This document shows, one piece after another, positions 22,543-24,887 of a DNA stretch of 32,000 nucleotides. Source of the DNA: Vibrio vulnificus CMCP6 (GTDB taxonomy: Bacteria; Pseudomonadota; Gammaproteobacteria; Enterobacterales; Vibrionaceae). The stretch is from NCBI RefSeq assembly GCF_000039765.1, contig NC_004459.3, positions 1,080,001-1,112,000 on the forward strand, written 5' to 3'. Position numbers and translations under genes: made by a program. The notes below the pieces were generated by a model. The model was given only the letters and a program-made list of their open reading frames with translations. It made no database searches and was not told the DNA's origin. Within the stretch, counting starts at the first letter, position 1; each line of letters begins with the position of its first letter.

Positions 22543-23154
22543 ATGACAACACTTGAACAACGATTAAGAGAGATCAAAATCGTCCCAGTTATCGCTATCA
22601 ACGATGTAGCACATGCCTTGCCATTGGCAAAAGTGTTGGTAGAAAACGGTTTGCCCTGTGCGGAAGTGACATTCCGCACTGAAGCGGCGGCGGAATCCAT
22701 TCGCATCATGCGCGAAGCCTACCCTGATTTGTTGATTGGTGCGGGCACGGTATTAACCACAGAACAAGTGGACATCGCCATCGAAGCGGGCGTGGATTTC
22801 ATCGTCAGCCCAGGCTTTAACCCAACCACAGTGAAATACTGTCAGCAACGCGGCGTGACCATTGTACCGGGCGTTAACAACCCAAGCTTGGTTGAGCAAG
22901 CGATGGAAATGGGTTTGCGCACCCTGAAGTTCTTCCCTGCTGAGCCATCAGGCGGCGTCAACATGCTTAAAGCGCTGACGGCGGTTTACCCAGTGGAATT
23001 CATGCCAACAGGTGGCGTGAGCCCATCTAACGTGGAAGATTATCTCGCGCTGAAATCGGTTGTCGCGTGTGGCGGTACTTGGATGGTACCAACCGCCATG
23101 ATGGACAGCGGCGATTGGGAAGGCATTGCCGAACTGGTTCGTGCGGTGAAGTAA
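22543..23154 (+). CDS. eda: 2-keto-3-deoxy-6-phosphogluconate (KDPG) / KHG aldolase
   Basis: Collinear with E. coli Eda. The Schiff-base Lys context is LKFFPAEPSGG, and PTGGVSP is also present. Confidence 0.95.
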   Translation: MTTLEQRLREIKIVPVIAINDVAHALPLAKVLVENGLPCAEVTFRTEAAAESIRIMREAYPDLLIGAGTVLTTEQVDIAIEAGVDFIVSPGFNPTTVKYCQQRGVTIVPGVNNPSLVEQAMEMGLRTLKFFPAEPSGGVNMLKALTAVYPVEFMPTGGVSPSNVEDYLALKSVVACGGTWMVPTAMMDSGDWEGIAELVRAVK

Positions 23155-23172
23155 AACACGATTTTTGCACAG

Positions 23173-23217
23173 CAATAAGGCTATAAATTAAATTGATAGC
23201 CTTATTGTTTGATTTTT
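23173..23217 (+). terminator. Rho-independent terminator of gntP-eda
   Basis: 12-bp arms CAATAAGGCTAT / ATAGCCTTATTG flank an 11-nt loop and are followed by TTTGATTTTT. Confidence 0.8.
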
Positions 23218-23422
23218 AAGTAGTTATCCGTTCAAGCTTTATATTTTTTATTGTTAATAAAGCACTATTTACATAAGTATCATGAATGTTTTTATATTTT
23301 TTGAAGTTGATTCTAAAGTATAAAAATTATAAGTTTTTTTAATATATTCTATTGTTTAATTGTTTTGTTACTAATTTTATTCATATATCTTCAGGTTATA
23401 TTTGTAACTGGATGAGCTCTGA

Positions 23423-24220
23423 ATGAATAAGTTGGTAATTAAAGGTAGTGTCGGAATTGATGGTTGTAATAATGTCAATGATATTATTAGTGTGCAGAAG
23501 GCGATAAATACTCTGTCTAAGAAATATTTTCAAATACAACCGTTGAAAGTCGATGGAAGTTTGGGACGTAAGCCTGAAAAATCTAAAACTGTTATTCAAA
23601 TTAATAATGTTCAAAAACATATTGTTAATATGATAAGAACAGATGGCAGAATAGATCCCAATGGAACATCAAATAAAAAGATAAATTTAGCATTGAACAG
23701 AATAGTTAGTATAGAAAGCCAATCTGTTCCTATCCTAACTAATGCTTCTTTTCCATTGGAACAAGTGCCAACAGAGAGCTATACCGTTGCTCCTAGAAGT
23801 TTTGGTTCTAATCGAGGTGCTAGGAAGCATGCTGGCTGTGACTTGTACGCTAAAGAGGGTAGTCGAGTCTTTGCAATGGCGGATGGTGAGATTATGAAGT
23901 TCTATGAATTTTATGGTGGTACCTATGCGTTGGAAGTTAAGCACGGAAAGGCTGTAGTGCGTTATGGTGAGATATCTGGTCGATTGCCTGATGGGGTATC
24001 TATTGGAGCCAAGATTCAACAAGGACAACATATTGCCTATGTTGGGAAAGTGGTCTTAAAAAGCGGGTGGACAGGTGAAATGCTGCATTTAGAGATCTAT
24101 GATGGAAGTGCTACTGGTATTTTAAGAGCTCCTTTATCAGAAAGCCCTTACCAAAGAAGGAAAGATCTCATAAACCCAACGGATATTTTGAATATGGCTC
24201 AAAAAAGGTTACCAAGCTAA
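23423..24220 (+). CDS. Leaderless peptidoglycan-binding-domain / LytM (M23)-like protein, a candidate cell-wall effector or orphan lysin
   Basis: There is no signal peptide. The N-terminal part is PG_binding_1-like (VQKAINTL...VDGSLG; VQKHIV...DGRIDPNGTS). The C-terminal M23 pattern is RKHAGCDLYAKEGSRVFAMADGEI...ALEVKHG...GQHIAYVG...EMLHLEIY. The HxxxD His codon is at 23828-23830 and the distal His codon at 24086-24088. Confidence 0.75.
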   Translation: MNKLVIKGSVGIDGCNNVNDIISVQKAINTLSKKYFQIQPLKVDGSLGRKPEKSKTVIQINNVQKHIVNMIRTDGRIDPNGTSNKKINLALNRIVSIESQSVPILTNASFPLEQVPTESYTVAPRSFGSNRGARKHAGCDLYAKEGSRVFAMADGEIMKFYEFYGGTYALEVKHGKAVVRYGEISGRLPDGVSIGAKIQQGQHIAYVGKVVLKSGWTGEMLHLEIYDGSATGILRAPLSESPYQRRKDLINPTDILNMAQKRLPS

Positions 24221-24750
24221 TGAAGTCAGTATTTTTTCTGTGTGGTTTTGCATTGTGTTTTAGCCAAGCATCTTTTTCTAAAGATAACTTTCTGAGAAAT
24301 GAATACAACTTGGGTGAGATATTAGACGCAATTAAATTTGATGCAAATAATGATTCGATCGAGGATTTTATTTTAGCAGCAAACCAAATCACGGTTGAGA
24401 ACAGTGATCAGACGTATGTCATTACTTCAAATCTAGATGAGATACAATGCAAAGCTCATGTTAACTCTGACCAAAAAGAAACTAAGTTGCTGATTTTACA
24501 TGGCCAGTCAAGAGAAGTGCATCGTCTTTCCCAGGCTCATTTGATCCTGCCCTGTGTGGGCGATTTTCATGGCGTAAAATATGGCATGTCATTTATTTCT
24601 CAACAGGCGTTATCGAAAAGTTTGGGGTATGATTTGGTTTCTGACCCCAACCAGATGCTCGTGGTAATACCAACAGAAGCTGGAATCGATACATACTTAT
24701 ATTGGACAGGGGAACGCTATCAGCTCTTTTATCCCCCAGAAGAACCCTAA
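24220..24750 (+). CDS. Secreted 176-aa protein of unknown function, translationally coupled to the M23-like gene (candidate immunity protein)
   Basis: Start and stop overlap as TAATG at 24218-24222. The signal peptide is MKSVFFLCGFALCFSQA|S. The gene shares the AT-rich composition of its upstream neighbour. Confidence 0.7.
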   Translation: MKSVFFLCGFALCFSQASFSKDNFLRNEYNLGEILDAIKFDANNDSIEDFILAANQITVENSDQTYVITSNLDEIQCKAHVNSDQKETKLLILHGQSREVHRLSQAHLILPCVGDFHGVKYGMSFISQQALSKSLGYDLVSDPNQMLVVIPTEAGIDTYLYWTGERYQLFYPPEEP

Positions 24751-24752
24751 AA

Positions 24753-24782
24753 GAAGGCCATCGTTTGATGGCTTTCTTTTAT
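24753..24782 (+). terminator. Rho-independent terminator of the islet operon
   Basis: The stem is GAAGGCCATC-GTTT-GATGGCTTTC (10 bp, one G.U), followed by TTTTAT. Confidence 0.75.
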
Positions 24783-24859
24783 ACTGGCTAACCCTTAGTT
24801 TTACCCGCCGTTGTTCTTTATGAAAATGGATCTCCGTGTTTCATTTTAGCCGCCCCAAT

Positions 24860-24887
24860 AAAAAATGGCCGCCAAAAAGGCCGCCAT
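24860..24887 (-). terminator. Rho-independent terminator of gor
   Basis: The minus strand reads ATGGCGGCC-TTTTT-GGCGGCCAT (9 bp, one mismatch), followed by TTTTTT. Confidence 0.7.

Follow-up and report, generated by a model that had tools for sequence, protein, structure and literature searches.

We analysed a 32,000-nucleotide stretch of the Vibrio vulnificus CMCP6 genome (NC_004459.3, positions 1,080,001 to 1,112,000; hereafter the window, whose own numbering is used throughout), in which a small AT-rich islet lies between the core metabolic genes eda and gor. This gap holds two open reading frames (ORFs) on the plus strand, ORF1 (23423..24220, 265 aa) and ORF2 (24220..24750, 176 aa). The TAA stop codon of ORF1 and the ATG start codon of ORF2 have one base in common, within TAATG at 24218-24222, and the two genes are predicted to be translationally coupled. 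A first-pass annotation, made from the letters of the DNA before our analysis, had given the same coordinates, sizes and overlap, and had interpreted the pair as a signal-less cell-wall hydrolase with a secreted partner in the manner of an effector and its immunity protein. To the left are gntK, a gene for a GntP-family permease and eda (22543..23154), and to the right gor (24918..26273, minus strand), a gene for an RlmJ-type methyltransferase and prlC, all of core metabolism; the Pfam labels of these flanking genes were taken from the corresponding genes of other V. vulnificus loci. The principal features are:

23160..24921, no strand: variable islet, delimited by BLASTN against empty-site strains; the lowest-GC 1762-bp stretch
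23423..24220, plus strand: ORF1, 265 aa, putative effector (toxin), a signal-less protein with a putative peptidoglycan-binding domain and an M23 metallopeptidase domain
23423..23722, plus strand: N-terminal domain of ORF1, ~100 aa, divergent and PG_binding_1-like, with three helices (residues 18-35, 55-66 and 82-98)
23735..24217, plus strand: M23 domain of ORF1, distinct subfamily, zinc ligands H136, D140 and H222 kept, E183 and M220 variant
24220..24750, plus strand: ORF2, 176 aa, exported partner and putative immunity protein, signal peptide encoded by 24220-24270

The islet stands out in composition, as had been noticed by eye. Sliding-window GC is 0.22-0.45 over 23150-24650 vs. 0.50-0.56 in the flanks, with the leader upstream of ORF1 (23160-23422) at 0.217, ORF1 at 0.376 (0.286 at third codon positions, GC3) and ORF2 at 0.388, while eda, gor, gntP and prlC have a GC of 0.52-0.53 and a GC3 of 0.56-0.59. 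The islet as a whole has a GC of about 0.36, lower than any other stretch of such length in the 32-kb window and ~4 standard deviations under the window mean (0.492, standard deviation 0.032, for stretches of 1762 bp). Ten distinct V. vulnificus eda-gor arrangements (L010-L019) were retrieved via the exact Eda protein. In BLASTN against six of these (L011-L014, L017 and L019), homology stops at 23159-23163 and restarts at 24918-24922. In the strains with an empty site it runs up to 23159 and again from 24922, and between these points lies an unrelated spacer of ~108 bp with a hairpin of its own, GGGTCATC...GATGACCC. The variable islet is therefore placed, by sequence comparison, at 23160-24921 (1762 bp, ~1.8 kb), a broader extent than first described. 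Since these borders leave the hairpins at 23173-23207 and ~24860-24887 inside the variable islet, the earlier view of them as the terminators of eda and gor that border the islet had to be abandoned. No direct repeats were found at the islet ends, and nothing resembling an integrase was recognised in the ORF list of the window or in the Pfam annotation of its counterparts in other strains, in agreement with the first reading of the site.

ORF1 shares 99% identity with P0001, a cluster of 130 member sequences from V. vulnificus. Pfam detects Peptidase_M23 (PF01551) at residues 135-227 with an E-value of 8.5e-12 and 45.6 bits, against a cutoff of 28.7, and no domain besides. The M23 part of the original domain assignment thus stands on ORF1 itself, whereas PG_binding_1 (PF01471) is not called on ORF1 and is seen by Pfam on many homologues with 37-45% identity (e.g. 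P0051, 26.1 bits vs. a cutoff of 23). We aligned 28 full-length sequences (alignment A1), which outside V. vulnificus are 37-48% identical. As had been stated for ORF1, a signal peptide is absent, and it is equally absent from 27 out of 27 aligned homologues, all of which have the conserved N-terminal domain at their very start. An upstream extension of ORF1 is precluded, its start being the first start codon after a stop. An AlphaFold2 model of ORF1 (mean predicted local distance difference test score, pLDDT, of 89.6) has a three-helix N-terminal domain (residues 18-98), then a brief linker of low confidence (residues 98-102) and finally the beta core of M23. With this model, the top Foldseek matches were Csd3, the LytM domain of EnvC, StM23, LytM and ShyA, all with a probability of 1.00.

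The active site departs from the M23 norm. In a profile alignment to ShyA and StM23, the zinc triad H136, D140 and H222 is retained, and it is invariant in A1. Where ShyA and StM23 have RYLH or VYGH, ORF1 has RYGE, with E183 in place of a catalytic histidine, and where they have HLHYE or HLHFE it has MLHLE, with M220 in place of another. Both replacements are invariant in A1 and their equivalents are invariant in 92 diverse representatives, in which the equivalent of H222 is nearly invariant. The fold, the profile and the zinc ligands are thus those of an M23 domain, as the first-pass annotation had proposed, but the two catalytic histidines (LytM H260 and H291) are not there, and because both have been replaced the domain is non-canonical. 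We assign it, by sequence, to a distinct subfamily of M23, which comprises 52 representative clusters at E <= 1e-30 and 860 at E <= 1e-10. The predicted enzyme is probably active, with the glutamate as a possible general base. E183 is encoded by 23969-23971 and M220 by 24080-24082 of the window; E224 is also invariant across the subfamily, and C139 is invariant in the 28-sequence alignment only.

The N-terminus of ORF2, MKSVFFLCGFALCFSQA followed by S, reads as a Sec signal peptide, and close relatives are confined to V. vulnificus and a single further Vibrio sp. Searches of ORF2 against Pfam, NCBIfam and PDB sequences returned no match. AlphaFold2 predicts an all-beta protein at a pLDDT of 71, with residues 7-25 of low confidence, and Foldseek found nothing significant for this model in the PDB, the best being the DDB1 propeller at an E-value of 0.02. 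The genes directly 3' of the ORF1 homologues in Photobacterium jeanii and in a Cellvibrionaceae metagenome-assembled genome (MAG) encode proteins with 22-25% identity to ORF2. Family members bear a signal peptide or a lipobox, and their alignment has an N-terminal GDFNGDGxxD motif and a C-terminal PTEAGIDTYLYWxG...P.E.P motif. A profile search gathered 72 clusters, none of them annotated, with FG-GAP/VCBS repeat proteins as the weakest matches. By these alignments, ORF2 falls in a family as yet unannotated, which is all-beta, carries an FG-GAP-like motif and has FG-GAP/VCBS repeat proteins as distant relatives. The absence of a recognisable domain, as first reported for ORF2, is borne out for Pfam only, since a family can be defined.

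Our next concern is how far the two genes belong together. Of 76 analysable related loci, 22 have a co-oriented ORF2-family gene directly 3' of the M23 gene, with Gamma- and Betaproteobacteria represented among them, and the pair is also found in an epsilonproteobacterial locus (L031), P. jeanii, the Cellvibrionaceae MAG and V. parahaemolyticus, in unrelated neighbourhoods. The epsilonproteobacterial locus, from a Sulfuricurvum MAG, is the most informative. There the gene order is a C-terminal fragment of VgrG (Gp5_trimer_C), a DUF2169 adaptor, a 1571-aa protein and an ORF2-family gene, and the 1571-aa protein carries Tox-PAAR-like and DUF6531, then RHS repeats and, at its C-terminus, an M23 domain of the ORF1 subfamily. 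Over ORF1 residues 110-264, this M23 part shares 50% identity (E 6e-52), and the product of the partner gene matches ORF2 at an E-value of 2e-09. From its gene order and domains, we interpret this locus as a canonical auxiliary effector module of a type VI secretion system (T6SS), with the M23 domain in the toxin slot and the ORF2 family in the immunity slot. A homologue next to vgrG and PAAR is what the first-pass annotation had suggested looking for. Further fusions of the polymorphic-toxin type support the link: among 92 long relatives, PAAR_motif was found in 2 and RHS in 1, with Pesticin, SLT, Amidase_2, SH3 and LysM also seen. Around 15 proteobacterial homologues, the 93 flanking genes scanned with Pfam were housekeeping genes only, T6SS-core, phage and defence genes not being enriched.

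Further relatives of ORF1 are known through its N-terminal domain, and came to light in a search for a plasmid origin that found no full-length plasmid homologue. Residues 1-103 are 42% identical to a Pseudoalteromonas PG_binding_1+CHAP protein, which has no signal peptide, and the domain likewise heads signal-less PG_binding_1+lysozyme and PG_binding_1+muramidase proteins. The CHAP and lysozyme relatives, each with an overlapping downstream gene, sit on Pseudoalteromonas megaplasmids amid genes for PAAR, RHS-core, SMI1/KNR4, Imm49, polymorphic-toxin and lipase proteins. One could go further and propose that the N-terminal domain, beyond binding the wall, may be a shared marker or loading domain of an unrecognised polymorphic class of signal-less cell-wall toxins, with M23, CHAP, lysozyme or muramidase at the C-terminus, delivered by T6SS in Proteobacteria and by another route in phyla that lack it, with new immunity families and with a glutamate-based mechanism in the M23 version. 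In this full form we hold the proposal to be speculative and rather unlikely.

Several relatives differ from the pair in their partners or in their surroundings. In Vibrio sp. THAF191d (a 1.85-Mb replicon; L025, 7989-8891), a 300-aa protein joins an ORF1-type N-terminal domain (34% identity) to an N-acetylmuramidase domain (PF11860, E 2e-64), and the overlapping next ORF is methyltransferase-like, not an exported partner. A second, unrelated family of small exported partners lies directly 3' of the M23 gene in seven loci (L032, L033, L035, L036, L067, L077 and L084). Its members are mostly 130-174 aa long (the ORF of L084, as called, has 367 aa), share a C-terminus of the form ...F.FE.G...R.Y.G...AE, and occur in Competibacter, in an Elusimicrobia MAG and with M23+SH3+SLT fusions; they may be an alternative immunity family. 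In V. parahaemolyticus (L106-L109, 10001-11015), an M23-only version of 164 aa and a lipoprotein partner of 170 aa form one cassette in a long array of co-oriented small cassettes, split by recurrent 29-37-codon ORFs and with a ParE toxin gene nearby, and this integron-like array looks like a chromosomal superintegron. In Psychromonas aquimarina (L037, 4846-8778), an M23-only gene, together with its partner, precedes two DUF6531/RHS-repeat ORFs by ~3 kb, which suggests a toxin cluster. A 914-aa protein of another locus (L095, 9485-12229) combines eCIS_core (DUF4157), the ORF1 M23 subfamily, PG_binding_1 and a class-3 lipase domain, and could be a cargo with several toxins for an extracellular contractile injection system (eCIS). 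In cyanobacteria (Microcystis and others; L061, L071, L080 and L091), proteins of ~610-620 aa open with the ORF1 M23 subfamily, and the one that was scanned with Pfam (L061) continues with three SH3 domains and ends in an SLT-like part; none of these four loci has an ORF2-family partner gene downstream.

The eda-gor site varies among V. vulnificus strains, as the presence/absence comparison proposed in the first-pass annotation makes plain; with four empty sites, the pair is not universally conserved. The ten arrangements are:

L011-L014: eda-gor gap empty, with eda and gor ~110 bp apart
L015: intact ORF1-ORF2 pair in the gap
L010, L016 and L018: degraded ORF1 plus ORF2 in the gap, with extra cargo in L010 and L016
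L017, 6671-8461: a 520-aa dCTP deaminase (PDLC02373, PADLOC dCTPase, E 6e-175) and a 58-aa upstream ORF in the gap
L019, 6988-9509: a 532-aa dGTPase (PDLC02374, E 3e-66) and an overlapping 307-aa gene of no assigned function in the gap
L016, 8518-12612, and L010, 8495-12612 (the extra cargo): an 888-aa LmuB-like (Lamassu-like) SMC protein with two TIR-domain genes, and a block with Methylase_S and HTH_Tnp_1 matches

By PADLOC, the alternative cargo thus consists of anti-phage genes (dCTP deaminase, dGTPase and LmuB-like SMC ATPase), and the eda-gor gap is a true hotspot, free of integrase, for defence and offence genes. The simplest explanation would be that islets are swapped by homologous recombination through the conserved flanks. 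That the position next to gor is a recurrent insertion site had been suggested on the ground that V. cholerae El Tor carries the VSP-I island there, in which case VC0186 would be gor; a look-up of this identity found nothing. The hotspot is real within V. vulnificus, while for VSP-I we can give only its flanks, VC0174 and VC0186 (PMC4045137).

Three of the arrangements carry a broken ORF1, by at least two independent kinds of lesion:

L016: ORF1 with a stop (codon 37) and two deletions, of 1 bp at 23613 and of 12 bp; ORF2 open, 176 aa
L018: ORF1 with the same 1-bp and 12-bp deletions as L016 plus an 81-bp deletion; ORF2 with a 1-bp deletion six codons before its stop
L010: ORF1 with a ~400-bp deletion (23306-23707) that takes the leader and the 5' half; ORF2 open, 176 aa

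The decay of ORF1, with ORF2 kept open in L010 and L016, matches the pattern expected of orphan immunity genes.

We consider the islet to be an orphan antibacterial effector-immunity pair of the type borne by T6SS, with a probability of about 0.68. The effector-immunity interpretation, already that of the first-pass annotation, is supported by homology: the two-gene module is conserved, its relatives occupy the toxin and immunity positions next to the VgrG fragment and adaptor in the Sulfuricurvum MAG, the N-terminal relatives lie in arrays of PAAR, RHS and immunity genes, and the islet is polymorphic. ORF1 has the character of a signal-less effector with a periplasmic target, and the adjacent co-oriented gene encodes an exported protein. 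In the proposed mechanism, ORF1 would be made in the cytoplasm where, with no signal peptide, it would have the producer's own wall out of reach, while ORF2, translationally coupled to it, would be exported by Sec and stay in the periplasm. ORF1 would be loaded as a cargo effector onto a V. vulnificus T6SS and injected into the periplasm of a neighbour. There its N-terminal domain would bind peptidoglycan and its M23 domain, of which we infer both the activity and the bond specificity, would cut peptide cross-links, leading to lysis. Sister cells would be spared by periplasmic ORF2, which would bind and block ORF1. The cassette would be gained when the conserved flanks, eda and gor, recombine, and could decay to an immunity-only form. 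As for the route, T6SS2 is present in all V. vulnificus strains examined and T6SS1 in a subset (Church et al., PMC5087951), and M23 is an established toxin domain of T6SS WHIX effectors (PMC12135965). Because V. vulnificus carries T6SS2 and M23 is a known T6SS toxin domain, delivery as T6SS cargo is the most likely route.

Five observations weigh against this interpretation. The replacement of both canonical catalytic histidines in ORF1 leaves its activity a prediction. As the first-pass annotation had noted, no delivery system is apparent nearby: no vgrG, PAAR, hcp, adaptor or other T6SS gene and no known loading domain was recognised in the window, nor were a T6SS gene, adaptor or known loading domain found within 10 kb of most stand-alone homologues, such linkage being present for homologues in the Sulfuricurvum MAG and, for the N-terminal domain relatives, in the Pseudoalteromonas arrays. 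What other strains carry at the eda-gor site consists of anti-phage rather than antibacterial genes. Where ORF1 is dead, the changes in ORF2 do not demonstrate purifying selection (9 non-synonymous vs. 5 synonymous in L010, too few to judge and not skewed towards synonymous ones). Finally, the ORF1 family, with relatives in 267 genomes, is frequent in Verrucomicrobia, Planctomycetes, Acidobacteria and Cyanobacteria, where it has no such partner or a different one. T6SS is known from few or no Verrucomicrobia, Planctomycetes and Cyanobacteria, and therefore cannot be the universal route of the family; in those phyla the M23 domain evidently serves other delivery routes or other purposes.

This last point leads to the possibility that the pair is a true toxin and immunity gene of which ORF1 is delivered without T6SS, by lysis of a subpopulation, by an eCIS or by an undescribed route. 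Besides the abundance of the family in phyla where T6SS is uncommon, the fusion of one relative to eCIS_core, the lack of T6SS neighbours around most stand-alone copies and the character of the cyanobacterial relatives, which are large lysins of M23, SH3 and SLT-like domains, all point in this direction. We nevertheless judge it improbable: T6SS2 is found in all V. vulnificus strains studied (PMC5087951), PAAR and RHS are the sole delivery-domain fusions among the proteobacterial relatives, and a protein released outside must still cross the outer membrane of its target. Moreover, no eCIS or tailocin was recognised among the window ORFs of at least 150 aa, domain labels being available only for the genes around the islet.

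The company of the pair at other loci suggests a defensive role instead, in which a cytoplasmic lysin would reach the wall only when a phage perturbs the inner membrane, as an abortive infection, with ORF2 as a periplasmic regulator. The dCTP deaminase, the dGTPase and the LmuB-like SMC protein with TIR genes at the eda-gor site would fit such a role, as would the integron-like array of short cassettes that holds the V. parahaemolyticus pair. However, hotspots commonly mix offensive and defensive cargo, no PADLOC family was found for ORF1 or ORF2 at E <= 0.01, and a cytoplasmic enzyme with an exported partner has no obvious sensing logic. The occurrence of toxin and partner inside a vgrG/DUF2169/PAAR-like-RHS module, which would be senseless for defence, argues strongly for an interbacterial toxin and makes an anti-phage function very doubtful. 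The layout of ORF1, with a predicted wall-binding and a catalytic domain and no signal peptide, resembles that of an endolysin, and PHROG families annotated as endolysins match its M23 part (best E 1.5e-13), as would befit a remnant of a prophage lysis cassette, an endolysin with an accessory or spanin-like gene; a phage endolysin remnant was the alternative named in the first-pass annotation. Yet tblastn against 50,697 phage records gave 3 weak partial matches (29-36% identity), ORF2 has no PHROG match, and the window showed no recognisable holin, integrase or other phage gene, the genes flanking the islet being of core metabolism; the two-gene module also recurs in housekeeping contexts and not in prophages. 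With the PHROG matches being to generic M23, we reject a phage origin as highly implausible.

The kind of system to which an orphan T6SS-type pair would belong is well known. In Tae/Tai, Tge/Tgi and V. cholerae TseH/TsiH, the gene of a signal-less hydrolase is followed by that of a small periplasmic protein, and such pairs may be orphan and distant from the T6SS cluster, strain-variable or reduced to immunity-only remnants. ORF1 and ORF2 share with them the gene order, the orphan state, the strain variability and the immunity-only remnants, but ORF1 has M23 for its catalytic domain in place of an amidase, glycosidase or NlpC/P60 domain, and the ORF2 family is undescribed, with no Pfam or PDB match and with its FG-GAP-like motif. 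With PAAR/RHS polymorphic toxins, the pair has in common that its M23 subfamily and ORF2 family appear as C-terminal toxin and immunity gene in the Sulfuricurvum MAG, although ORF1 itself stands alone, with neither PAAR domain nor RHS shell nor adaptor gene. ORF1 has the fold and the HxxxD...H zinc triad of LytM, lysostaphin, ShyA and Csd3, and differs from them in the Glu and Met at LytM H260 and H291, in having no signal peptide and in being accessory rather than housekeeping. Phage endolysins of the phiKZ gp144 type have an N-terminal PG_binding_1 and a C-terminal catalytic domain and no signal peptide; ORF1, with its PG_binding_1-like N-terminus, has a similar domain order and lacks a signal peptide as well, but has no phage context, almost no phage homologues and a conserved exported partner gene. 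T6SS effectors with a WHIX domain, such as Aeromonas Awe1, have an M23-type peptidase toxin and neighbouring genes for signal-peptide proteins (PMC12135965). ORF1 resembles these in its M23-type domain and in its neighbour, which encodes a signal-peptide protein, and differs in its length of 265 aa and its PG_binding_1-like N-terminus; WHIX is absent from it by Pfam, no dedicated WHIX profile search having been made.

The feature is real and its earlier interpretation is correct in outline, and what is added consists of a variant active site, a new putative immunity family, a shared N-terminal domain and a hotspot of defence and offence. A literature search found no paper on the pair itself, on its M23 subfamily or on the family of ORF2. 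A 2016 study of T6SS1 in V. vulnificus noted that the effectors and immunity proteins still need identifying (PMC5087951), and for this poorly defined repertoire ORF1 and ORF2 offer a concrete candidate directed at the cell wall, along with its putative immunity gene. Beyond V. vulnificus, the analysis sets out a broad subfamily of M23 whose active site is unusual, as well as an unannotated putative immunity family of ~70 clusters, and it presents the eda-gor gap as an integrase-free chromosomal hotspot that exchanges antibacterial and anti-phage cargo. Because both genes vary between strains, the pair could shape the competition of strains in oysters.

The rest of the islet consists of a leader and hairpins:

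23160..23422, plus strand: AT-rich leader, presumed promoter region, with the hairpin at 23173-23207 just after eda
23238-23359, upstream of ORF1: three loose AT-rich 21-mers, 76-81% identical and 48-53 bp apart
24757..24780, plus strand: terminator-like hairpin, GCCATCnnnnGATGGC then TTTCTTTT, directly 3' of ORF2
24859..24890, minus strand: GC-rich hairpin (GGCCGCC...GGCCGCC) downstream of gor, inside the variable islet and missing from empty-site strains

The hairpin at 24757..24780 was assigned to the minus strand by the scan, and its plus-strand T-run was read off the sequence. A promoter scan gave one weak sigma-70-like match, at 23254-23283, with a match count not above that of shuffled sequence. 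The three 21-mers of the leader could be binding sites of a regulator or of a nucleoid protein, or could have arisen by chance in AT-rich DNA.

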